From Escherichia coli (GTDB taxonomy: Bacteria > Pseudomonadota > Gammaproteobacteria > Enterobacterales > Enterobacteriaceae), in the NCBI GenBank assembly GCA_009729775.1, contig GCA_009729775.1_4081.1: a stretch of 64,000 nt of DNA, one strand, 5' to 3'. Positions 1 through 47,575 of this stretch are shown in pieces (the stretch's first letter is position 1; each line of letters starts with the position of its first letter). The notes under the pieces were generated by a model. It worked only from the letters and a program-made list of their open reading frames with translations. It searched no databases and had not been told where the DNA came from. The position numbers were made by a program, and so were the translations under genes.

Positions 1-586
1 AAACATCAAACTCGGCACTTACACTAGTTACATTATCACTGACAATTTTAAAAATTGATTTGATGCGTTCATGTAGTGGCACTTTTGATTCATTTTCAAC
101 TTCAATATATGCTTGCATTGCTGCAATAGCATGATATGTTCCGCTACCTACGGCGGTGATTCGTGTTTTCGGTTGAAGAACTGAAAAATCTTCTTGAACT
201 TCATAAATTGTATGATTGTGAAGAATGATGAACTGTCCACCACCTACTTCTTGTGAAGGATCACGAGAACCCCATTCCTCTTTGAACATTTGACGAATAA
301 TAGGAATAACTTTCAGTACTAAGTACTGTGGAAACGTCTCATTTGCATCTTGCTGTGGTAGATTCAAACTGTAAGTAAGAAGTTGACCCATACGGAATGA
401 TGTGGTGTAACCAATCGCCATAATTTCTTTTGTACGGGTCAAACCAGCATCATCATTGATTTTAATGAATTCTTTCTCAAATACTTTAGGCTCAGTTTGA
501 ACGGACTTTGTGAACCCGTTACTTCCCAGTTTGTCCCCTGCAATAAAAGAAGTTACACCATCAGTGTGTGCAATGATACATGTCAT
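1..586 (-). CDS. HslV/proteasome-type Ntn-hydrolase peptidase (3' end outside window)
   Basis: Minus ORF open from ATG at 586 to window edge (absent from track, no stop in window); translation MTCIIAHTDGVTSFIAGDKLGS...AIGY...AVGSGTYHAIAAMQA resembles HslV (Thr2 nucleophile, GSG motif); GGAG 8 nt upstream. Confidence 0.6.
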   Translation of the reverse strand, partial: MTCIIAHTDGVTSFIAGDKLGSNGFTKSVQTEPKVFEKEFIKINDDAGLTRTKEIMAIGYTTSFRMGQLLTYSLNLPQQDANETFPQYLVLKVIPIIRQMFKEEWGSRDPSQEVGGGQFIILHNHTIYEVQEDFSVLQPKTRITAVGSGTYHAIAAMQAYIEVENESKVPLHERIKSIFKIVSDNVTSVSAEFDV

Positions 587-843
587 AAAATAGCTCCAAT
601 TGCAAATAAAGTTGTATATAAAATATAAATCAATGTACCTAATAACATTAGACACACCAAATATGATGTTGCCAGAACATAATAAATTATTGCTTCAAAC
701 TTTGAATTGAACTTCATTGTTGTGTTATCAATAAAGCCATTTTTGTAATCTTTGTAAATGAAAACTGTTAGGAAAAGTACAGTAATATACATCACTACTG
801 TAGCATAAAAAATAATAGATGTCAAATTTTGGATGTTTGTCAT
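583..843 (-). CDS. small hydrophobic membrane protein
   Basis: 86 aa ORF, two predicted TM helices; ATGA-type overlap with downstream gene. Confidence 0.45.
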   Translation of the reverse strand: MTNIQNLTSIIFYATVVMYITVLFLTVFIYKDYKNGFIDNTTMKFNSKFEAIIYYVLATSYLVCLMLLGTLIYILYTTLFAIGAIL

Positions 844-913
844 AGTTATATAATCTCAATATAATTAATAACAAAGGAAGTACATCATAATCATCCTGTT
901 ATTTTAATTATTT

Positions 914-1522
914 TTATTGTTTGACTGAACCGTAAAAAACCAGTTCTGGTTTTGTTAATATTACAACATCTTCACCACGCGAACGGCTAACTTTATATAG
1001 AACGTCTGGTGGAATTCCATTTGCAGAATATAGTGTAAATAGAAAACCTACTTTAGTTGCCATTTCTTCAGTAAAAGTTGATAGCTGCCTAACTGATACA
1101 AAAGAATTATCACCGTCTTTAACATTACTTTTAATAGAAATGTTATGAAGTCCCAGTACTGAGCGATTTATCATGTATCGCTTTTCAAAAGCTACACTGA
1201 AGAATACCACAGTACATGCTGAGTTGCAATACCTAGAAACAATTAAATTTATACCATTGTCTCTAACGAAGTTTGCCATTTTAATCCCAGCATCAAAATC
1301 ACCACCTGGCGATGTGATGGTAATGGTATCATAGTGTTCTTTATCATACAACTCCATCATACGCTTTAGTGACCCATCCGTAATATCTGAGATGAAATAT
1401 ACATTACGTGTTTCAGGATTGTACTTTATCACATTTTTACTTTCAACACCAGCACTGGCTGGAAAATTTATCAACATCAGAAGCATTACTGCTTGTACTA
1501 CCTCAAGCCATAGTCTTTTCAT
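914..1522 (-). CDS. ClpP/S14-like serine peptidase with N-terminal signal/TM segment
   Basis: 202 aa; hydrophobic N-terminus (AVMLLMLINFPASAG), then ITITSPGGDFDAG...NSAC...LGLHN resembling ClpP SPGG / Ser / His motifs. Confidence 0.6.
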   Translation of the reverse strand: MKRLWLEVVQAVMLLMLINFPASAGVESKNVIKYNPETRNVYFISDITDGSLKRMMELYDKEHYDTITITSPGGDFDAGIKMANFVRDNGINLIVSRYCNSACTVVFFSVAFEKRYMINRSVLGLHNISIKSNVKDGDNSFVSVRQLSTFTEEMATKVGFLFTLYSANGIPPDVLYKVSRSRGEDVVILTKPELVFYGSVKQ

Positions 1523-1555
1523 AACAAATCCTTAATTTTGGTTAGGAAGATATAA

Positions 1556-1584
1556 ATAATATAGTACTTAAACACTTAAGTCAA
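1556..1584 (-). promoter_or_regulatory. sigma70-like promoter (TTGACT-17-TATTAT) upstream of 914..1522
   Basis: Reverse complement reads TTGACTtaagtgtttaagtactaTATTAT, then AAGGAT RBS before the ATG at 1522. Confidence 0.35.
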
Positions 1585-1831
1585 ACTTTTTCTGTACTTA
1601 ACTCAAATTTCCCTCATCTGATAATCCCCTTAGTACAATCACTGTGAAGATTCTATCACAAACCCATACCAAATGTAAAGCTTTTTTATAAGGAGTGCCC
1701 TTAATGGGGGAACCAATCGCAGGACAAGACCAATTTCCATTCACTTTAGGTGGATATTTAGTTGACGGTGTAAATATAAAAGGTACAACAATCTGTAAAA
1801 GTAGTTGTTTATTAATAAGAGGAAATAAAAT

Positions 1832-2209
1832 ATGAAAGCTATAGCAGCACAAGGTAAATTACCATTCAATATCGGCGGCTTTTGTGTAACCGCCGCTAAT
1901 ATAAACGGTGAATTGAAATATAACTTGAACATCTTTAATCAACGTTCTAGTTGTGTTTACGATCTTATCGACACTGATTTTAATGTTTATCGTTTTGTAA
2001 CTATAACAAGTTTTGATAAAGATAAAATCAGATTAGATGCAACTAAAACTGCACTAGAGATTGCACCAACTTTAGCAAAAAATACTTTTTGTATTAAGAT
2101 TGATGATAGTGCATTTGCCGAATCATTCCAGTTTCATAAAATTAAATTGAGTACTGGAGAAATGAAATATCACCCTTGGGATTTGTATTATTGTAACATC
2201 CCTGGTTAA
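1832..2209 (+). CDS. hypothetical protein (only convincing plus-strand gene)
   Basis: 125 aa ORF; GAGGA RBS 7 nt upstream of ATG; followed by hairpin terminator. Confidence 0.55.
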   Translation: MKAIAAQGKLPFNIGGFCVTAANINGELKYNLNIFNQRSSCVYDLIDTDFNVYRFVTITSFDKDKIRLDATKTALEIAPTLAKNTFCIKIDDSAFAESFQFHKIKLSTGEMKYHPWDLYYCNIPG

Positions 2210-2210
2210 C

Positions 2211-2240
2211 AAAAAAGGAGCCTTCTGGCTCCTTTTTTTA
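2211..2240. terminator. bidirectional rho-independent terminator between convergent genes
   Basis: A6-GGAGCC-ttct-GGCTCC-T7; usable on both strands. Confidence 0.7.
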
Positions 2241-2492
2241 TTCTACAGTATTAAGCTTCTGACAAATCATGTCAGCTTCTACTCGGTCTTTATAATAAAT
2301 GGTAAATCCAAATCTACTTGTTACCCTTTTCTCACTACGGTGTATACAGTTTACAATATAGTACTTATTATTTTGTGCAGAAAAACGCACTTCATAGTTT
2401 CGTTGAGAAATGTCATTATCATCAATAACAAACATTACTGTTATAAAAAATAATACTAATATTGATAGTAATCCAACAATCATAAATGTCAT
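2238..2492 (-). CDS. small membrane protein
   Basis: 84 aa, N-terminal TM helix (MIVGLLSILVLFFITVMFVI). Confidence 0.45.
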   Translation of the reverse strand: MTFMIVGLLSILVLFFITVMFVIDDNDISQRNYEVRFSAQNNKYYIVNCIHRSEKRVTSRFGFTIYYKDRVEADMICQKLNTVE

Positions 2493-2980
2493 TGATTCAT
2501 ACCCTTGTCATAAATGCAGTTAACAATAATCCCAGCATCTTCCAGTACTTTAATCGCTTCAGGTGGTGTTCGTGGATAACTTTTGTGATAAATTACACGG
2601 GTAATCCCACTACCTGCGATTAACTTAGAACAAGTATAGCATGGTTGTAGAGTTGTGTAAAGAGTTGCTCCTTGGCGTTCAGTAGGAGAACTATACAGTA
2701 AAGCGTTCATCTCTGCATGGATCTCATGAATATTACTCCACTCATGATGTTCATGTTTTGCTGCATCATCAACCCAGTCTTGAAAACGACCATCGTTCAC
2801 TAAATGTTGATTTACATCACAACAGTTTGGCTGCTTAGATGGCGTTCCATTGTATCCAGTACTCAATACTCTATTATTTTTAACAATAACACAACCAACT
2901 TTTTGTGAAATACATTTACTTTCCTCAGCAACTACTTCTGCTATCTTCAACCAAGTCGTATGTTTCATTATAAGCTCCAA
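2489..2980 (-). CDS. cd: deoxycytidylate (dCMP) deaminase
   Basis: 163 aa; HAEMNAL and PCYTCSKLI zinc-binding motifs typical of dCMP/cytidine deaminase fold; T4 cd-like. Confidence 0.85.
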   Translation of the reverse strand: MELIMKHTTWLKIAEVVAEESKCISQKVGCVIVKNNRVLSTGYNGTPSKQPNCCDVNQHLVNDGRFQDWVDDAAKHEHHEWSNIHEIHAEMNALLYSSPTERQGATLYTTLQPCYTCSKLIAGSGITRVIYHKSYPRTPPEAIKVLEDAGIIVNCIYDKGMNQ

Positions 2981-3449
2981 TACTTAACAATGCGTTTTTA
3001 CACAAATCATGAATTTTCATAACTCGAATATAGTTTAACACATCTGTTTCATTAATTTCAAATGGTTTATCTGCATATGTAGACCATGTTTGATTTAATT
3101 CAATCACAAATGTAATTTTGTCTGTATCCATAATATTATCACAAAATCTACGAAAATCTTGCTCTTCATCGGAAAGTCTGAAATTTAAATCATTTTTTAA
3201 ACCATTAACAGTGAAGCAAATACCAGTACTGTAACCGATGCAAATATCTTCAATATCATATAATCCATAAATTAATTTAGAGATAAAAGTGCTATATTTG
3301 TTTCTATGATAATAGTTTAATATTTCTTGTTTAATATTAATTTCAATATCAGTAGTTTTTTGTAATGTAAGTTTAATTAATTCTAATGTCTTGATTATGT
3401 TATCTAACCAGATATTAGTATCATCTATACTTAGGTGTGTGTATTTCAT
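2925..3449 (-). CDS. hypothetical protein
   Basis: 174 aa ORF; true start may be internal (overlaps upstream gene end). Confidence 0.45.
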   Translation of the reverse strand: MKYTHLSIDDTNIWLDNIIKTLELIKLTLQKTTDIEINIKQEILNYYHRNKYSTFISKLIYGLYDIEDICIGYSTGICFTVNGLKNDLNFRLSDEEQDFRRFCDNIMDTDKITFVIELNQTWSTYADKPFEINETDVLNYIRVMKIHDLCKNALLSIGAYNETYDLVEDSRSSC

Positions 3450-3975
3450 TATGTCCCTCTAGATTCCAATCATCAACGAGTTTAGAACAAACTTCCATAT
3501 GATTATAGTACTTTTCATTCAATACATAAGGTTTATTATGATATTGACGTACATCAGTGAATATATCATAATTTCTATATATGAATGACATATTTTTGTG
3601 CATGAATTCTATAGTTTTCCAAATCTTTTCTATATCATATAAAATTGTTTTTAATGATAAACCTGTAAGCTTTGAAATTCTTTCAACTTTAAAACCGGAT
3701 AATATCATAGTATTATTGTGTTTAGTCAAATAACTATATCCAATTGAACTATGTATCATTTCTACACTATCAACTTGTGTTATTGTTTTTAAAAATGACT
3801 TTAAATTTCTATTAAACCAATACCACTTTTTGTTTTTATTATAACATGAATACCATTTCTTCAATATATCAATTGCTTCAGAATTAATTTTCAAAGCAAA
3901 CTCATCAATTAAAAACATATGATGATAAAAAATATCACTTTGTTCTTCAGTTAAATTATATTGCTGCATATTCAC
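3421..3975 (-). CDS. hypothetical protein
   Basis: 184 aa ORF. Confidence 0.5.
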   Translation of the reverse strand: MNMQQYNLTEEQSDIFYHHMFLIDEFALKINSEAIDILKKWYSCYNKNKKWYWFNRNLKSFLKTITQVDSVEMIHSSIGYSYLTKHNNTMILSGFKVERISKLTGLSLKTILYDIEKIWKTIEFMHKNMSFIYRNYDIFTDVRQYHNKPYVLNEKYYNHMEVCSKLVDDWNLEGHNEIHTPKYR

Positions 3976-4054
3976 CTACCCTAGTAACAATGATTCCTTG
4001 GGTATTTAGCTTATATAGATCATTTTTTGATCGATGAAAATTGATATACAGCAA

Positions 4055-4086
4055 TAAAAAGAGGAATCCAGTACTGGATTCCTATT
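4055..4086 (-). terminator. rho-independent terminator
   Basis: Perfect palindrome AGGAATCCAGTACTGGATTCCT followed on minus strand by CTTTTTATT. Confidence 0.65.
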
Positions 4087-4093
4087 TGTAATA

Positions 4094-4540
4094 TTATTTT
4101 TGATATGGGGTGTACTGATATTTTTCACAATCAGAAACAGTTAGGACACCTTCGTCATAACCATATTGAAGAACGAGGTCGAAAGCTTTATCAACCATAG
4201 CCACAACATCTTTATAACGAACAATTTTATGCGATTGATTCTCAACAGCTTTCATAATACCCATTAGTAGCCAACGTCCTTCATCTGTATGAAGTTTAGC
4301 AAAACGAGGTCGTTTAGTAGCTGCCATAATATCAGTCCATTCAGCTTTAAAAATGTGTGGACGTTTTGGAATATCATATAGTGTAGTAGGGAAAGTTACA
4401 TTATTTTTCTTCATTGCTTCTGCTTGGGCTGCACGATAACCCTGACGATATAATGGATGCTGCATTTTTAGTTGTTCAGCACTTAGAACTACTTTTGCTT
4501 TGTATGCGTCATAACCATCTTTATATTGTGCATTAGACAT
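4094..4540 (-). CDS. hypothetical protein
   Basis: 148 aa ORF. Confidence 0.5.
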   Translation of the reverse strand: MSNAQYKDGYDAYKAKVVLSAEQLKMQHPLYRQGYRAAQAEAMKKNNVTFPTTLYDIPKRPHIFKAEWTDIMAATKRPRFAKLHTDEGRWLLMGIMKAVENQSHKIVRYKDVVAMVDKAFDLVLQYGYDEGVLTVSDCEKYQYTPYQK

Positions 4541-4541
4541 A

Positions 4542-4859
4542 TTATTCTTTTACCTCATCAGTTTGAATGTATTTTTTATCAGAGAATGTACCGTGTTCTT
4601 TACGCATAGCTTCTGCATGTTGAACCGCATCAACTGGATTAATGTTCTTTTTAATTAGTACTTCTTTCATTAATTCAAGTACAATTGCAAAACCATTCAG
4701 TACACGCTCAGATTCATCCACGTTTTTTAATTCAAGTGCTACTGCACTAATTTGATCGAACGCAACATTAATAAAATCGGAATCTTCTAATACATTTGCA
4801 ACTTCAGTATTATTACGCACTAGTACTTTCATATAATCTCCACAAAGATGATGCCCCAT
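4542..4859 (-). CDS. hypothetical protein
   Basis: 105 aa ORF; start may be internal Met (MKVLVRNN) with GGAG RBS. Confidence 0.5.
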   Translation of the reverse strand: MGHHLCGDYMKVLVRNNTEVANVLEDSDFINVAFDQISAVALELKNVDESERVLNGFAIVLELMKEVLIKKNINPVDAVQHAEAMRKEHGTFSDKKYIQTDEVKE

Positions 4860-4880
4860 ATTGAGGCATCAAAAACCATC

Positions 4881-5576
4881 TTACACCCACTCTTCCACGC
4901 CACCGCGACGCTTAACTAAGTACTTACCTTCTTCATTGCGTGGCCCAAGAATAATACCATCGATGAAACCATGTTCACCATATTCAAGAGCTTCTTCTGC
5001 ATTTAGCCACAAATCACGGTCTGCATCTTTAAGTAGTTGTTCGTGTGTTACACCAACTGCTTCTGCAATTTCTTTAGTCAATAGAGTGTTTAGGGCATCA
5101 GAATGTTTAAGTGAAATCTTCTGGTCAGTAATTAGACCTTGTGTACCAGAACTTACTTGGTGACACATGAAATAAGAACGCTTACCACCTAAACGGAAAC
5201 CTTTAGTGCCAATTACAGATTGTGTATAGCAACCCATTGATGCTGCATAGCCCATTACTACTGTGCGAATTGGCGAAATACAAGACTTGGCAACATCTGC
5301 AATACCCAAACCTGCGTGTACTGAACCACCAGGAGAACTAATGTAAAATGTAATAGGGGAATCACCTTGTGAATCTAGCCAAACCAATTGTTGTTTGATG
5401 ATATGTGCCATTTGATCATTAAAGTCAGTATCAAGGAAAATGATACGGTCTTGCATCATTCGAGATGCTAGATCATATGTACGCTCTGACCCATTAACTT
5501 TTTCAACTACATAAGGAATAGAAATGTTACGTACTTCACCACCAGCATAACCACCAAAATTGAATTGTTCAACCAT
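4881..5576 (-). CDS. clpP: ATP-dependent Clp protease proteolytic subunit ClpP
   Basis: 231 aa; IPYVVE..ERTYDL..SRMMQDRIIFL..YISSPGGSV.AGL..AASMG..MCHQ motifs match ClpP; AGAGGA RBS. Confidence 0.85.
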   Translation of the reverse strand: MVEQFNFGGYAGGEVRNISIPYVVEKVNGSERTYDLASRMMQDRIIFLDTDFNDQMAHIIKQQLVWLDSQGDSPITFYISSPGGSVHAGLGIADVAKSCISPIRTVVMGYAASMGCYTQSVIGTKGFRLGGKRSYFMCHQVSSGTQGLITDQKISLKHSDALNTLLTKEIAEAVGVTHEQLLKDADRDLWLNAEEALEYGEHGFIDGIILGPRNEEGKYLVKRRGGVEEWV

Positions 5577-5610
5577 TATTAATTTCCTCTATTGTTTCAA
5601 TGTTGTGAGT

Positions 5611-5639
5611 ATTATATCACTAAGATTTAAAATGTCCAA
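5611..5639 (-). promoter_or_regulatory. sigma70-like promoter (TTGGAC-17-TATAAT) upstream of clpP
   Basis: Reverse complement reads TTGGACattttaaatcttagtgaTATAAT about 35 nt before the clpP ATG. Confidence 0.4.
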
Positions 5640-5640
5640 A

Positions 5641-6081
5641 CTATTTTACTGGAATATTTGAAAAGAAATCAGTCATCCAATACGCCGTCTCTTTGTTGAA
5701 TAATACTGGATCAAACTTAAGTAACTCAACATGACTTGTATCATACACGCTTGTATCGGTAATGTCAAACAAAGTTTTAGTACTGAATAGTGGATTACTC
5801 ACTAGAAAGTAGTAATCAGCAGTAGTGCTAATGTCATCATAAAACACACCGTCATACCATCCATCATCATATACATAAACAGAATCGTCATGAAGATAGT
5901 AAACTTCTATATGTAAACTCAAGTTCTTCATGGTTTCAATCATTTTTGCCGTATGAGGATTTAACTTATTGACATTTTCAAACACATAAGAGTGTTTTTT
6001 ATTCATATCAACAAATGAAAATATTCGTACTGAACGTATATTCATATTACTCCAAATAAACAAGTGAATTAATGAAATCAT
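5641..6081 (-). CDS. hypothetical protein
   Basis: 146 aa ORF. Confidence 0.5.
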   Translation of the reverse strand: MISLIHLFIWSNMNIRSVRIFSFVDMNKKHSYVFENVNKLNPHTAKMIETMKNLSLHIEVYYLHDDSVYVYDDGWYDGVFYDDISTTADYYFLVSNPLFSTKTLFDITDTSVYDTSHVELLKFDPVLFNKETAYWMTDFFSNIPVK

Positions 6082-6430
6082 ATTTCAATTTATCATCAAC
6101 ATAATTCAAATCAACTTTAATCATCGGAGCATGGGAACGTATAGACAGTGTTTCCATAAAGTACTGATTAAGTTTGTATGTATGGAAAAGATGAATATCT
6201 CGTTTCAACACCACCATTACTTCCCCGAACAGATCACAGAGTTCAACTTCAGTGTTAGTAGGGTCAAACCCATAACGATTCTTTAATGTACGTGGTTCTT
6301 TATTTCGATAATAATGCACAGCTTTATTACTATTCACTAACAAGTGATGATATGCATTACTATAAACTGAGCAAATAACTCGGCTTGGATAATTGGTATA
6401 TTCTGGTAGTTCAAAATAAATTAATGACAC
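6047..6430 (-). CDS. hypothetical protein
   Basis: 127 aa ORF. Confidence 0.5.
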   Translation of the reverse strand: MSLIYFELPEYTNYPSRVICSVYSNAYHHLLVNSNKAVHYYRNKEPRTLKNRYGFDPTNTEVELCDLFGEVMVVLKRDIHLFHTYKLNQYFMETLSIRSHAPMIKVDLNYVDDKLKYDFINSLVYLE

Positions 6431-6442
6431 AATATCCTCTCA

Positions 6443-7234
6443 TTAAATTTCAAATACAAATTTAGGATTGTAATCAAAATTCTCACAAGCTCCACTGTAT
6501 GATTCATAGCCTCGTGGATTACAAATGATACGTGTCTTACCAATGTGGTAGTCAAAGCTACTATGAACATGACCATGAATCCAAACATCAGCACCCAAAT
6601 CTTCAATGTACTGATCCATATCGGAACAGTAACAACCATTCAGTGAATCATTTTTATATTTTGGTGAAACACTTTGATAACTTGGTGCGTGATGGGTAAC
6701 CACGATGACCTTGAAATCATTATCATGCATAAAGCGAACTGTGTCAATAGAATTTTTGATAAATTGTTTATCTTTGTGATGCATAAACTCAGTATCATCT
6801 GGTGTCAGTTTCTTACGCCAAGGCTCTGATGTTGTTCCATGACGGATATGTTTGTAATCGTTCATCTTCAGACGAGCATCAAACTTCGTTAAAGAATTAC
6901 CTTTATCGAAGTCTGTCCACAGAGTACTACCAACAAGCAGTACTCCATCCAGCCATACAAATTTGTTTTGCAAAAAGATGAAATTTGGAATCTCATCTTG
7001 CATATCAGACAGTACTTTATGCGTTTTGTGGATATTGGAACCATAGTATTCGTGATTACCGGGAACCAGTACTACATTCTTAAACTGCTTACATAGTGAT
7101 TCGATGCCAGTACGGTAACGACTGCGTTTAACTTCATCGAAGTCCCCAGCAATAATCAGTACTACATCACTGTAATCACCGCTATGGAGGTAATCAGTTC
7201 CACCGTGTACGTCAGATGTTACAACAAATTTCAT
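6443..7234 (-). CDS. calcineurin-like metallophosphoesterase
   Basis: MKFVVTSDVHGG..GDFDE..GNHEY..HGHVH motifs; start trimmed to MKFVV. Confidence 0.75.
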   Translation of the reverse strand: MKFVVTSDVHGGTDYLHSGDYSDVVLIIAGDFDEVKRSRYRTGIESLCKQFKNVVLVPGNHEYYGSNIHKTHKVLSDMQDEIPNFIFLQNKFVWLDGVLLVGSTLWTDFDKGNSLTKFDARLKMNDYKHIRHGTTSEPWRKKLTPDDTEFMHHKDKQFIKNSIDTVRFMHDNDFKVIVVTHHAPSYQSVSPKYKNDSLNGCYCSDMDQYIEDLGADVWIHGHVHSSFDYHIGKTRIICNPRGYESYSGACENFDYNPKFVFEI

Positions 7235-7253
7235 AATTACCCCCAATAAATGG

Positions 7254-8672
7254 TTAACCTAATGCGTCAATAATACTGTTTGAGAATACTTCAACTGCAC
7301 TCTCACGAATTTCTAAGATACGAGTATAATCATCACAAGTGTTTTTGTCAAATCTAAATTCAATAAACACTGGTAAGAACAGTGATGGCTCACCAGTACG
7401 CTTGTCGAATACAATGTCATTACACTCAACTGTAACCACTTTACCAATAAGTTCTTGCATTCTTTCCCAAATGGTTTTAAATGTCCATTCAGCATCTTTC
7501 TCTTTGATACCAGTACCCACATTAACTTTCAATGAACCACAAGCACTTTCCAGTTGTAAAGAACCTAGGCTTCCTTTACGTTTACCTTCACCTTCATTGA
7601 AACCAACAATACGTAAGTCCAGTTGCATTTTCAATTTCATTTTCAACTGCTTCGGAGAAGTGTGAGATTTCCAGATGCCATCTTCACATTTCAGTACTGA
7701 ACCCTCTTCACCTTCGTTCATTAGTTCACTATTGTACTCAAATGCTTCTTTGATGTTTAGAACTTTACGGAATCCAACCATACGAACAAAATCACTATTG
7801 AGTTCGTTAATTGCATCTACTAAGATCTCGCGACGTTCTTTACGTTTTACATCCCATACGCCTTCACAAAATGCATCATATGGAACAACATCCCATAGAA
7901 CGAATACAGTACGCATTGCTTCATTCTGACTGATGCTATCTTTTCCAGCTTTCTGAATTATACCGTTGCCAGTAGTGCGTGGGAGAATTGTTTCCCCATC
8001 ATTGTCCAGTACTACACCTTCACCCATAAAGACTACACCACTACTAAAACGTTCATCTTTACTTTGGATGATGTGAGCAAGACCTGCCATCTCACCATCT
8101 CGACAACCCAGGAAGTCGTATAGTTTACCATTACGGGATGTAGAAGTTAATGAACCATTAATGACAACGTGGTTCAAGTACTGACCATCCATTTTCACTT
8201 CTGATATAGCATAACCATAATCTTTGAAGTTAATGTTCTTTGCAGTCTTTTTGTCAATCAAAGAACAACGCATATATGGTTCGTCTTTGATGAATCCTTT
8301 ACCAAACACATCATTGCAGTTTTTCTCCTGAATACCACAATCAAGGTTCTTCGTGAGCATTTTACGAAGAACTTCCTGGTCATCTTCTGATACAGAACCC
8401 AGTACTGAAGCAATGAAATCACGCCCAGCATTTCCTGTCACGCCACGCTTGTAAATGCATTCTAGCTTATCAATTGCTTCATCTAACGTCATATGTTGAT
8501 ATACGTCATCAGCGTCAGGGAGCTTCTTATAGCCACTTACGATAGAAGGGTCTAGAGTATATTTCAGTACTTTTTGTAAAGTTACATTATCTTTATTTTG
8601 TTCAAGAATAGCTTTTTTGCCTAGTGTACTGCTAGTATTTTTAATGCTTTCAAGAATTGCTAAAATGCTCAT
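7254..8672 (-). CDS. ATP-dependent DNA ligase (T4 gp30-like)
   Basis: 472 aa; N-terminus GKKAILEQNKDN resembles T4 ligase; adenylation motif SEVKMDGQ (KxDG); length and layout match T4 DNA ligase. Confidence 0.85.
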   Translation of the reverse strand: MSILAILESIKNTSSTLGKKAILEQNKDNVTLQKVLKYTLDPSIVSGYKKLPDADDVYQHMTLDEAIDKLECIYKRGVTGNAGRDFIASVLGSVSEDDQEVLRKMLTKNLDCGIQEKNCNDVFGKGFIKDEPYMRCSLIDKKTAKNINFKDYGYAISEVKMDGQYLNHVVINGSLTSTSRNGKLYDFLGCRDGEMAGLAHIIQSKDERFSSGVVFMGEGVVLDNDGETILPRTTGNGIIQKAGKDSISQNEAMRTVFVLWDVVPYDAFCEGVWDVKRKERREILVDAINELNSDFVRMVGFRKVLNIKEAFEYNSELMNEGEEGSVLKCEDGIWKSHTSPKQLKMKLKMQLDLRIVGFNEGEGKRKGSLGSLQLESACGSLKVNVGTGIKEKDAEWTFKTIWERMQELIGKVVTVECNDIVFDKRTGEPSLFLPVFIEFRFDKNTCDDYTRILEIRESAVEVFSNSIIDALG

Positions 8673-40613: not shown

Positions 40614-40959
40614 AATTTACCTCGTGTGTGATATAACTCCACGCAGTAAGAATATCTATTTGTATATCCTGTACTTCATGAAAATATTTAAGTACCTTCT
40701 GGTATTCCATTATTTTGTACACATCTTCAGTACTGATAGTGCTCTGCTGAAACAATTCCTCTTCTGATAAAGTACTATAATCAGGGATTTTTATTTCTGA
40801 ATATATATCATTTATCTTTCCATTGTCTTGATAAATCTGGATATAAAATTGATTGTATTCTGGAATATAGGTTACATAATGATTGTGTCTGATTACATAT
40901 CTTGAAACAAAGTATTCAGTACCATCAGTCATGTACTGAATTGTTGTCGTATTTTGCAT
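40597..40959 (-). CDS. family A paralog
   Basis: motif SEEELFQQSTIS. Confidence 0.6.
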   Translation of the reverse strand: MQNTTTIQYMTDGTEYFVSRYVIRHNHYVTYIPEYNQFYIQIYQDNGKINDIYSEIKIPDYSTLSEEELFQQSTISTEDVYKIMEYQKVLKYFHEVQDIQIDILTAWSYITHEVNYVRND

Positions 40960-41419
40960 TCAAATAATCCACGCATTTATAGTATACTACTAAATCTAAA
41001 AAGAATCGTTGTTTGTATTTGTAATGATGAAGTAGTGCACCATAAAATAACATAGCATTAAGTACTTTTACATCATGAATACAAGAACCCTGAAAGTACA
41101 TTTCCTCTGACATGAACACTAAATCATCATACTTAACAAATACTGCTTCTCTATAATTGTCAATATTAATCTTCAAATCAGACCCAGGGCAATATGAAAT
41201 GTATCCGGCTTTGTAATGAAAGTCATTGTCATCAAAGTACTCGGTATAGATTTGATTACCTCTTTCATTAGTAAATGCAAGTCTTCCGTTGGATGAACTA
41301 AACTCATCGTATTCGAACATACCACCAAATGGGTCAGGACTTCTGAACTCCTTTGCAATGCGATAGATATTTTCTGCAAATTCTAAAACACCATCGTAAT
41401 CATATTCTGTAGTAATCAT
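40925..41419 (-). CDS. family A paralog
   Basis: motif SEEMYFQGSCIHD. Confidence 0.6.
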   Translation of the reverse strand: MITTEYDYDGVLEFAENIYRIAKEFRSPDPFGGMFEYDEFSSSNGRLAFTNERGNQIYTEYFDDNDFHYKAGYISYCPGSDLKINIDNYREAVFVKYDDLVFMSEEMYFQGSCIHDVKVLNAMLFYGALLHHYKYKQRFFLDLVVYYKCVDYLNAKYDNNSVHD

Positions 41420-41892
41420 AAACCATTTTTCTCCAGGTACTCAATAATACAATCGAGATTGTTCAGGTCCAAGTAGAAATGATCACTATCTGAATTTAGT
41501 TCATTTTTAAGGGCAGTGTAAATCACTGAACTGAAAACAATCCTCTCTGGATACACAGTACTGTACTGGAAGAACTCTTCTTCAGTGTTAATTTCAGCCG
41601 TATCAAATCCTTCATTTATAAGATGATGATTGTAGTATTTGAAATTATCTGAACTTGGGAAATGGTATGAAATAAAATCACCACTTGGTACTTCATCAAG
41701 CACTCTAATACTACAAGTTGATTCATCTGAACTATAGAGTAACACATCCATAAAGGAAAGGTATCCATTTCGTTTTTTGACTGTATGTTTGCCTACGGAA
41801 AAATCTTCAGTAACATTTGTAAGGAATTTATAAACCCTGATAATGTCTTTTGCTATTTTTTGTGCATTGCTAAATGATAGGTCTTTGGACAT
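41416..41892 (-). CDS. family A paralog
   Basis: motif TEEEFFQYSTVY; N-terminus MSKDLSFSNAQKIAKDI. Confidence 0.6.
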   Translation of the reverse strand: MSKDLSFSNAQKIAKDIIRVYKFLTNVTEDFSVGKHTVKKRNGYLSFMDVLLYSSDESTCSIRVLDEVPSGDFISYHFPSSDNFKYYNHHLINEGFDTAEINTEEEFFQYSTVYPERIVFSSVIYTALKNELNSDSDHFYLDLNNLDCIIEYLEKNGL

Positions 41893-46346: not shown

Positions 46347-46660
46347 TATATTTCTATCTCAATGTAATCCTGTGTGATTAAGTAATTCCAATGATACTTC
46401 ACCTGCTTTTGTAATTCAATTAACGTAAAGAAGTTGATCGATTTATCCCACACGAGCGATTCCTGGAAAATAAATGATTCATGTTCATCGTAATAATCAC
46501 ACTCTAAAAAATCAGGTATATATTCACTATCGTGAATGTATTCAACAAATGAACTAGCTTGGCATTTCTTTACTACTAGTAATAATGAATTATCATGATC
46601 AAACAGATACAATAAACTAATTTCACCAGGGACGTACTGAACACTGAATAAGTTTTTCAT
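46346..46660 (-). CDS. family A paralog
   Basis: motif HESFIFQESLVWD. Confidence 0.6.
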   Translation of the reverse strand: MKNLFSVQYVPGEISLLYLFDHDNSLLLVVKKCQASSFVEYIHDSEYIPDFLECDYYDEHESFIFQESLVWDKSINFFTLIELQKQVKYHWNYLITQDYIEIEI

Positions 46661-47109
46661 TCTATACCTTCTGGATCTTTACGAAGTTCTTCGAAATCCA
46701 AATAAAATCGAGGACAGTTAACACTCTTTAAGTACCACATAATAACTAATGCTTCAAGTACTTCATCATCGTAAACAGTACTGTTTTGGAAGTAATACTC
46801 TTCACTATCCCACGGACCTTCCAGTACTTCATAATTCAAAATTAATGGTTTTTTGCGATTAATAAAACGAATGCTACCATTTTCAACATAACTAATAAAT
46901 TCTGCATCTCTATTGTATTCAGAAAACGATATAGGACTATTGGAATTCAACCCAAGAATAACCCTTACACCAACGGAGTTATTATACATTTCATCCTTGT
47001 AGTAGTTGCCGTTCTCGGCTTTGTACACTTCTTTGAACTTTCCTGCCTTTATATCGTCAAAGTATCCATGTAGTTCTTTTGCTTTTTCAAGAGCACTTTG
47101 TAATGACAT
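46657..47109 (-). CDS. family A paralog (subgroup MSLQSALEKAK)
   Basis: motif VLEGPWDSEEYYFQNSTVYDDEVL...WYLKS...FYLDFEE. Confidence 0.65.
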   Translation of the reverse strand: MSLQSALEKAKELHGYFDDIKAGKFKEVYKAENGNYYKDEMYNNSVGVRVILGLNSNSPISFSEYNRDAEFISYVENGSIRFINRKKPLILNYEVLEGPWDSEEYYFQNSTVYDDEVLEALVIMWYLKSVNCPRFYLDFEELRKDPEGIE

Positions 47110-47575
47110 TACCTTCTCCTACAGTATTCTCTACATATTCATAATCAAAATAGAAACTACTGGAGTCAATACTTTTGAAATACCACATAATTACAATAAC
47201 ATCTAATTCTTCTTCATTGTACAACGTACTATTCTGGAAGTAATATTCTTCACTATCCCACGGTCCTTCCAGTACTGAATAAGGAATGATAGTGTCATCA
47301 GCATCACTATCTGTGTTGTAGATGGTAATATCTTCATTACGACAATAACTAATGTACTGATTGTACATATGATATTCACAGTTATCACTGTCACCAGTAT
47401 CAGTGTGCAGTACTAATGTTTCTGCACATATCTCGGACTCGTCATAATCGTCACGGTCTTTTACAAAAAATTCAGTATCAGATGTTTTATATACACCTGG
47501 TACTGAACCTTCCTGTACCATAATCATGTACTCATGAATCTTCTTTGCTTCTTTCAATGCACTTTGTAATGACAT
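47087..47575 (-). CDS. family A paralog (subgroup MSLQSALKEAK)
   Basis: motif SEEYYFQNSTLYNEEEL...WYFKS. Confidence 0.65.
   Translation of the reverse strand: MSLQSALKEAKKIHEYMIMVQEGSVPGVYKTSDTEFFVKDRDDYDESEICAETLVLHTDTGDSDNCEYHMYNQYISYCRNEDITIYNTDSDADDTIIPYSVLEGPWDSEEYYFQNSTLYNEEELDVIVIMWYFKSIDSSSFYFDYEYVENTVGEGNVITKCS

Follow-up and report, generated by a model that had tools for sequence, protein, structure and literature searches.

ClpP, HslV-like and predicted exported ClpP-fold peptidase genes of a 121Q-like Escherichia jumbo phage

Three peptidase genes in a phage-derived contig

The 64,000-nucleotide stretch of DNA analysed here (hereafter the window; contig GCA_009729775.1_4081.1 of the Escherichia coli assembly GCA_009729775.1) carries three peptidase genes, all on the minus strand and inside 5.6 kb: one for a ClpP, one for a ClpP-like protein with a predicted signal peptide and one for an HslV-like protein. 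Judged by strong sequence homology, which excludes a chance resemblance, these open reading frames (ORFs) are real genes and their products look like catalytically competent peptidases. The three are probably accessory, non-virion proteins of separate kinds, namely a ClpP that would act with a phage-encoded ClpA, an exported periplasmic peptidase and an orphan HslV-like peptidase. The analysis directly established what the proteins are, their folds and catalytic residues, the gene content across the genome and the phyletic patterns; the features identified are listed in Table 1.

The original prediction, made from the letters of the window, had placed an HslV-like protein, a ClpP-like protein with a leader and a canonical ClpP at these positions, and all three identities were confirmed. 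It had proposed that the active sites be mapped and profiles compared. Catalytic residues were found in all three proteins (S113/H139/D188 in ClpP, S101/H126 in the exported protein and T2/D18/K34 in the HslV-like protein), and the HslV-like protein was aligned with E. coli HslV by hhalign at a probability of 96.4%. The hydrophobic leader that it had noticed in the second ORF is signal-peptide-like. Its description of the set as unusual was overstated, since the trio is kept in approximately 33 Asteriusvirus genomes and is already annotated.

Table 1. Features of the peptidase genes, their candidate partners and neighbouring elements. Positions refer to the window unless another record or locus is named.
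Feature	Position	Strand	Remarks
ClpP (S14)	4881..5576	minus	231 amino acids (aa); Pfam, PDB match, aligned triad
ClpP catalytic triad	S113 5238-5240; H139 5160-5162; D188 5013-5015	minus	
Sigma-70-like promoter match, extended -10	5611..5638	minus	TGGACA-16-TG-TATAAT, 11/12; directly upstream of ClpP; consensus match only
Intrinsic-terminator-like hairpin	4849..4871	minus	10-bp stem and T-rich tail; just past the ClpP stop codon
ClpA orthologue gp581	121Q record, outside the window; locus L093, 22258-24546		762 aa; domains AAA, AAA_lid_9, AAA_2, ClpB_D2-small
ClpS-like gp48	121Q record, outside the window; locus L089, 34461-35006		181 aa; Pfam ClpS 2e-5
Exported ClpP-fold Ser/His peptidase (predicted)	914..1522	minus	202 aa
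Predicted signal peptide of exported protein	residues 1-24, 1451-1522	minus	predicted cleavage ASA/G
Oxyanion-region motif of exported protein	1301-1312	minus	S71-P-G73-G74
Nucleophile, base and Cys pair of exported protein	C99 1226-1228; nucleophile S101 1220-1222; C103 1214-1216; H126 1145-1147	minus	
Sigma-70-like promoter match	1556..1584	minus	TTGACT-17-TATTAT; upstream of exported ClpP-like gene; consensus match only
HslV-like N-terminal-threonine peptidase	1..586	minus	proteasome-type, T1; ATG at 584-586
HslV-like catalytic candidates	T2 581-583; D18 533-535; K34 485-487; G147-S148-G149 140-148	minus	
Small membrane protein ORF (121Q gp474)	583..843	minus	86 aa; at least 2 hydrophobic segments
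121Q gp476 and gp477 (Sir2-like, Nudix)	locus L001, 5015-5767 and 4467-5018		
Family A, 11 ORFs	34813-59438, e.g. 46657-47118 and 40925-41440	minus	135-226 aa; S-E-E-x-Y-F-Q-x-S

Source phage and genomic setting

Escherichia phage 121Q (NC_025447 / KM507819) is a 348.5-kb jumbo myovirus of the genus Asteriusvirus. Its genome matches positions 1-8000 of the window with 96.7% DNA identity over the full length, and approximately 20 further Asteriusvirus genomes, including phAPEC6, PBECO4, SP27 and Sharanji, are ~93% identical to the same segment. The window runs antiparallel to the 121Q record, its position 1 corresponding to approximately position 219,941 of 121Q. It represents a slightly different isolate of a 121Q-like phage and differs from 121Q in nothing of substance. 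The order and strand of the three protease genes are the same in 121Q, where they are already annotated: gene 464 (ClpP) as 'head maturation protease / protease (ClpP-like)', gene 473 (the exported protein) as 'protease (ClpP-like)' and gene 475 (the HslV-like protein) as 'peptidase HslV family / protease (ClpYQ-like)'. The closest database relatives are 100% identical for the exported protein and ~99% identical for ClpP and the HslV-like protein, and orthologues of the three genes are also present in PBECO4, phAPEC6, Sharanji and other Asteriusvirus genomes.

The genes are thus known at the level of annotation and are ordinary for this phage lineage. A specialist in jumbo phages would find none of this surprising: Clp genes in Rak2-like phages have been noted earlier (PMC6102473; PMC7824862), and an HslV gene without an HslU gene has been remarked on in another jumbo phage (PMC7823757). 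The present analysis adds the exclusion of head maturation, a tie between ClpP and the ClpA and ClpS of the phage, and a probable mis-annotation. It also places the HslV-like and exported proteins in large uncurated families whose catalytic signatures are intact. The least explored part is the exported ClpP-fold family.

ClpP and its candidate partners

The ClpP ORF matches PF00574 (CLP_protease) at 3.8e-41 (141 bits against a cut-off of 20.2; model positions 2-179 of 182) and solved ClpP structures down to 4.6e-36. The protein is 36% identical to E. coli ClpP, and its S113, H139 and D188 fall on S97, H122 and D171 of the latter (mature numbering). By these alignments it can be regarded as a bona fide ClpP, albeit a divergent one, because its score of 155 bits against the NCBIfam equivalog for cellular ClpP is below the cut-off of 249. 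The axial loops at the N-terminus of ClpP serve gating and contact with the unfoldase. The corresponding region of the phage protein, IPYVVEKVNGSERTYDLASR, starts at I20 (IPYVVEK...) and aligns to the N-terminal stretch of E. coli ClpP. The ~19 residues ahead of this region are not conserved in the orthologues of phages GAP32, CBB and SE_PL and may represent a propeptide; a C-terminal extension of ~20 residues is also present. ClpP is distributed across the Rak2-like clade and beyond.

The ClpP gene is preceded by a promoter match and, 8 nt ahead of the ATG, by the ribosome-binding site AGAGGA, and is followed by a terminator-like hairpin, a combination that suggests that it forms its own transcription unit. 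Terminator-like sites were found more often than expected (8 versus 2.3), whereas promoter-like sites were not enriched over shuffled sequences, i.e. the promoter scan was not above chance.

Partners were sought in the full annotation of 121Q and by comparing the 121Q ORFs with E. coli ClpX, ClpA, HslU, ClpS, ClpP and HslV. The ClpA orthologue gp581 is 43% identical to E. coli ClpA across 732 residues. The IGL of ClpA is the loop by which it docks to ClpP, and in gp581 the segment 'KRSIGMSGSD' aligns to 'RKSIGLIHQD' of ClpA, placing IGM at the position of this loop. A second candidate, gp48, contains a ClpS domain. No homologue of ClpX or HslU was found in 121Q by either route.

In the phage database, the numbers of records with ClpP and with a ClpA-like protein were 34 and 33 for Escherichia, 10 and 11 for Klebsiella, 8 and 10 for Salmonella, 8 and 8 for Erwinia, and 11 and 11 for Pseudomonas phages; the two proteins share the same phage groups. 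Conservation of ClpA in most Rak2-like phages was reported by Attai et al. (PMC6102473). The most economical mechanism is therefore an ATP-dependent protease of the ClpAP(S) type encoded by the phage, in which ClpP most likely works with phage partners, a partnership that we infer from these sequences. The phage system would share with the ClpAPS system of E. coli the ClpP triad, the N-terminal loop region, the IGM of the ClpA-like protein and a ClpS-domain protein. It differs in that the three genes concerned are scattered over the phage genome, with one each at ~35, 215 and 298 kb in 121Q, that ClpP carries N- and C-terminal extensions and some changed putative docking-pocket residues, and that the ClpS-like protein has a 70-residue N-terminal extension.

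Predicted exported ClpP-fold protein

The leader of the 202-aa protein consists of MKR, the hydrophobic segment VVQAVMLLMLINF (Kyte-Doolittle value of 2.78) and P-A-S-A, followed by the predicted cleavage point and G. Within this predicted signal peptide, E7, Q10, F20 and P21 are invariant in ten phage homologues, which is unusual for a signal peptide; an invariant Glu at position 7 is likewise unusual for an n- or h-region. Perhaps the leader serves some additional purpose, or acts as a signal anchor. In the rest of the protein, S101 and H126 align with the nucleophile and the base of ClpP, so that the catalytic Ser and His stand at their ClpP-fold positions. Matches to NCBIfam models were weak, and matches to GFP-like structures in the PDB obtained with phmmer were discarded as spurious.

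A word-based search retrieved only 14 close relatives, all on Asteriusvirus-like contigs. With tblastn, 49 phage records were found (Asteriusvirus, the RaK2/K64-1 group, Erwinia phage Hallingskeid, Xanthomonas phage XaC1 and a Vibrio jumbo phage); in K64-1, the gene lies ~4 kb downstream of ClpP as in the window, so synteny is kept. An exhaustive profile search yielded 2,763 relatives at E<=1e-3. Among the best 150 of these, C-x-S-x-C is present in 147 and S-x-G-G in 148, and the N-terminus is hydrophobic in 121 and lipobox-like in 19. Phage and bacterial members alike have S71, G73, G74, C99, S101, C103 and H126 without exception. Scans of bacterial relatives matched no curated family in Pfam or NCBIfam. 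By its motifs (SxGG…CxSxC…H) and leader, the exported protein thus appears to belong to a large, uncurated extracytoplasmic family. SppA (S49) and NfeD/1510-N, which are extracytoplasmic ClpP-fold peptidases, are among the closest known systems.

An extracytoplasmic location excludes an ATP-dependent partner, and we therefore infer that the protein is an ATP-independent periplasmic Ser/His peptidase. That C99 and C103 form a periplasmic disulfide flanking the nucleophile is speculation. A broader proposal is that these proteins constitute a large unrecognised family of ClpP-fold Ser/His peptidases working outside the cytoplasm and without ATP (SxGG...C-x-S-x-C...H), which Rak2-like jumbo phages export to cleave proteins of the host envelope. 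Taken as one joint claim this is tentative, and we consider it possible rather than probable. Within it, the purpose might be superinfection exclusion, receptor removal or lysis timing, and the Cys pair might be a disulfide or redox element by the nucleophile.

The neighbourhoods of three distant bacterial relatives share no common theme. The relative in Vibrio aestuarianus (locus L096, 1-5753) adjoins a cluster resembling those for ribosomally synthesised and post-translationally modified peptides (RiPPs), comprising a 61-aa ORF, a radical SAM enzyme, an HlyD-like protein and a C39-peptidase ABC transporter; the other two contexts are unrelated to this RiPP-like cluster. In the window, the gene has the ribosome-binding site AAGGA 7 nt ahead of its ATG, and the promoter match upstream of it may start a unit that comprises this gene, the small membrane ORF and the HslV-like gene, in that order.

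HslV-like protein

Of the HslV-like gene, 195 of 198 codons lie inside the window. The 121Q orthologue has 198 aa, so the window edge removes only the last three codons and the stop. The protein has no Pfam match (including Proteasome), a single-sequence phmmer search against the PDB gave nothing significant, and a phmmer comparison with E. coli HslV itself did not match it either; the relationship emerged only with a family profile. It matches PHROG 1040 ('peptidase HslV family') at 5.7e-23, and a profile of 41 family sequences reached HslV structures at 1.8e-9. The AlphaFold2 model has a predicted local distance difference test score (pLDDT) of 92.7, and its top Foldseek matches are HslV (3e-9), BPH and proteasome beta subunits, with template modelling scores of 0.6-0.74 (up to 0.74 for BPH); the predicted fold is the alpha-beta-beta-alpha sandwich of N-terminal nucleophile (Ntn) hydrolases. 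An ungapped HMMER alignment places T2, D18 and K34 on Thr1, Asp17 and Lys33 of E. coli HslV, and the GxG corresponds to the Gly-Ser-Gly motif. In the 41 family members, M1, T2, D18, K34, G147 and G149 are invariant, and position 148 is Ser or Cys.

The protein thus resembles HslV, BPH and the proteasome beta subunits (T1) in its Ntn fold; as in HslV, there is no propeptide and the Thr follows the initiator Met directly. It differs from these proteins in its low identity (~15-19%), in an invariant motif of its own, GYTTSFRMGQLL, and in the absence of HslU from the phage.

Relatives were found on at least 595 IMG/VR contigs and in 197 phage records, including ~33 of Asteriusvirus, T5-like Epseptimavirus (EPS7, S132 and others), phages of Aeromonas and Vibrio, and Xanthomonas phage XacN1. 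The gene is missing from most genomes of the RaK2/K64-1 group, because only two Klebsiella records match. The family (PHROG 1040) is therefore large and phage-borne, occurring in jumbo, T5-like and many uncultured phages. In 84 viral loci, no recurrent partner, in particular no AAA+ ATPase, was found beside the gene. The neighbours are variable: portal or terminase genes lie 2-3 kb downstream in ~18 loci, and genes for an HD-domain protein, LigA and Thg1 also occur. A ClpP-like gene within 6 kb is rare outside Asteriusvirus. On a 120-kb metagenome contig (locus L005, 6001-7542), the HslV-like gene is directly followed by a 324-aa ORF with a weak CLP_protease match, and PhoH is nearby. Gp23 is the major capsid protein family of T4, and in one uncultured phage lineage (loci L007, 5090-6555, and L008, 3048-4513) the HslV-like gene overlaps the end of a 304-aa ORF matching Pfam Gp23. 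This overlap hints at a morphogenetic role for some members of the family.

The TGA stop of the small membrane protein ORF overlaps the ATG of the HslV-like gene (ATGA), and this overlap suggests that the two are translationally coupled. The 86-aa product has no Pfam, PHROG or PADLOC match, and phage SE_PL carries at this position an unrelated small ORF with two transmembrane segments. A small membrane ORF upstream was rejected as a family-wide feature, being present in 6 of 78 loci against a background of 12%. The surroundings of the gene are NAD-related: the Sir2-like and Nudix genes lie immediately downstream, and in SE_PL (locus L099, 6081-9263) genes for nicotinamide mononucleotide adenylyltransferase and nicotinate phosphoribosyltransferase occupy the place upstream of the HslV-like gene that the exported ClpP-like gene takes in Asteriusvirus.

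Proposed roles and dependence on host partners

The partnerships, localisation, oligomeric states and substrates proposed for the three peptidases are as follows. The phage ClpP would be the proteolytic core of a phage-encoded Clp machine, most likely as the usual double heptamer. The ClpA orthologue would feed it, docking through the IGM loop, and the divergent ClpS-like adaptor would probably modulate the machine. Its targets would be selected proteins of the host or the phage, broken down in the cytoplasm over the long course of infection. The 202-aa protein would be exported by Sec and cleaved after ASA, and would work, independently of ATP, as a Ser101/His126 peptidase in the periplasm, where there is neither ATP nor an unfoldase. 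The HslV-like protein would be an orphan Thr1/Asp17/Lys33 peptidase and, since the phage has no HslU, would act alone or borrow HslU from the host. If this is correct, these jumbo phages bring a complete machine of the ClpA-ClpP-ClpS type and two orphan peptidases, going beyond the borrowing of host proteolysis, and these proteins would be candidates for remodelling of the host proteome, destruction of defence proteins and modification of the cell envelope during a long infection. The exported CxSxC family and the PHROG 1040 HslV-like family are large families that await characterisation and readily lend themselves to biochemical tests.

Several observations weigh against parts of this proposal. 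The ClpA-like and ClpS-like proteins were seen in 121Q and not in the 64-kb window. At eight positions, which we take to form the unfoldase-docking pocket, the alignment of the phage and E. coli ClpP reads Y60T, Y62Y, F82S, I90V, M92M, F112L, L114G and L189I. Because of the changes among these putative pocket residues (Y60T, F82S and L114G), docking of the phage ClpP to any ClpA can only be called putative; the changes could also reflect co-adaptation to the IGM loop of the phage. Relative to ClpS, gp48 carries D36P, M40A and H66N at positions presumably belonging to the N-degron pocket, several canonical residues of which are missing. The PF00574 match of the exported protein (16.7 bits, partial coverage) is below the Pfam threshold of 20.2, its leader was judged by hydrophobicity and the AXA rule only, and D185, which aligns to the triad Asp of ClpP, is replaced by K, R, Q or T in close relatives. 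Because this Asp is not conserved and a hydrophobic leader replaces the axial loops, the protein is classified as a ClpP-fold enzyme and not as a strict ClpP. The HslV-like protein scored only 19 bits against the HslV equivalog NF003964 (cut-off of 137) and 18 bits against TIGR03692 (cut-off of 158). It is termed 'HslV-like' and not HslV because, although its proteasome-type catalytic set is complete, it falls short of the equivalog thresholds and has no HslU.

The best-surviving alternative is that the phage ClpP works mainly with ClpX or ClpA of the host, or in mixed rings with host ClpP, thereby redirecting or poisoning host proteolysis, while the HslV-like protein competes for host HslU. 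It fits the lack of ClpX and HslU in the phage and the ClpP-like N-terminal loops of the phage ClpP, and to our knowledge the hosts of phages carrying the HslV-like gene all have HslUV. Iyer et al. (PMC7824862) have also proposed that ClpP and ClpS of jumbo phages act on the host. Nevertheless, we consider it unlikely: the phage has a ClpA orthologue with a loop of the ClpP-docking type, found in the same phage groups as ClpP, the putative pocket residues differ from those of E. coli ClpP, and the HslV-like protein is very distant from E. coli HslV. For ClpP, the earlier suggestion that the peptidases hijack host proteolysis has to be modified, since the phage encodes its own ClpA orthologue and ClpS-like adaptor.

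A further alternative denies protease activity to the HslV-like protein, the exported protein or both, and sees in them either pseudoenzymes or hydrolases of non-protein substrates, such as an amidase or esterase of the Ntn or crotonase/ClpP superfamilies. We regard it as distinctly unlikely.

Head maturation and the question of a common module

Processing of the phage head was among the functions suggested in the original prediction, which had also pointed out that prohead proteases of T4-like phages normally belong to another family. The latter point applies here: 121Q gp601 is a protease like T4 gp21, located amid the portal (gp598), scaffold (gp602) and major capsid (gp603) genes. T4 gp21 (S77) has no likeness to the three ORFs, from which it differs in fold and family, and gp601 fills the head-maturation role in this lineage from elsewhere in the genome. 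With a gp21-like protease present, a head-maturation role of the three ORFs is unnecessary. Among the 62 virion proteins of phAPEC6 identified by mass spectrometry, the 'prohead core scaffold and protease' gp227c was included and the orthologues of the three ORFs (gp345c, gp346c and gp353c) were not (PMC7247149), which also tells against the suggested processing of injected proteins. According to Iyer et al. (PMC7824862), the gp21 orthologue processes the head in groups 1 and 2 of the jumbo phages, and ClpP is one of several patchily distributed, probably host-directed peptidases.

The case for ClpP, or all three proteins, as proteases of head maturation or virion-protein processing lies in annotation: the best PHROG match of ClpP is phrog_94, 'head maturation protease' (4.2e-44), and the RefSeq label is alike. 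ClpP-fold prohead proteases are indeed common in other phages. The phage ClpP scored 51 bits against NF045542, the model for ClpP-related head-maturation proteases (cut-off of 120), versus the 155 bits for the cellular model; its neighbours are ligase, deaminase and phosphoesterase genes; and its N-terminus retains the axial-loop region that characterises ClpP working with an unfoldase. By best model, genomic location, virion presence and status as the sole maturation protease, it falls outside the head-maturation class. None of the three ORFs is a prohead protease, and this alternative, which is very improbable, can be regarded as largely refuted. In RefSeq and PHROG, ClpP (gene 464, and likewise in several other records) bears the label 'head maturation protease', which was probably carried over by mistake from the very broad phrog_94 and will propagate to further records.

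The three genes are probably not one module. The idea that they form a single processing cascade, with substrates including the family A proteins cleaved at E-x-x-Y-F-Q-x-S, draws on their position inside 5.6 kb on one strand and on this motif, which alone is invariant among 11 paralogues encoded in the window and resembles the site of the TEV protease. It is scarcely credible, because ClpP, the exported protein and the HslV-like protein differ in phyletic spread; the syntenic block of SE_PL has retained ClpP and the HslV-like gene but contains no gene for the exported protein; the predicted location is the periplasm for one product and the cytoplasm for the other two; and ClpP has promoter-like and terminator-like sites of its own. 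In addition, 3C/NIa enzymes have a fold different from that of ClpP- and HslV-type enzymes, and none of the protease families concerned is known to read an extended P6-P1' motif.

The family A proteins are very divergent, with pairwise identities of only 15-21% and E, Y, F, Q and S as their sole invariant residues, and have no Pfam match. Their 121Q orthologues all carry the annotation 'hypothetical protein', without any virion flag. The TEV-like link to the three peptidases that had been floated was rejected: none of their families is known to read such an extended site, no supporting evidence was found, and nothing ties the motif to ClpP- or HslV-type enzymes.

Surrounding genes

The proteases are surrounded by a conserved block of genes for a DNA ligase, a phosphoesterase, ClpP, dCMP deaminase, Sir2, Nudix and PhoH proteins. 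This is probably a conserved early/metabolic block in which the proteases are accessory, non-virion genes, and the accumulation of accessory genes in such a block best explains their clustering. No PADLOC model for defence systems matched. Two genes of this region have virion-associated products. A small Ig-domain protein is encoded at 1832-2209 of the window on the plus strand, i.e. on the opposite strand amid the non-structural block, and its orthologue in phAPEC6, gp347, is an abundant virion protein with 75% sequence coverage (PMC7247149). The PhoH-like gp341c of phAPEC6 is likewise associated with the virion (PMC7247149).

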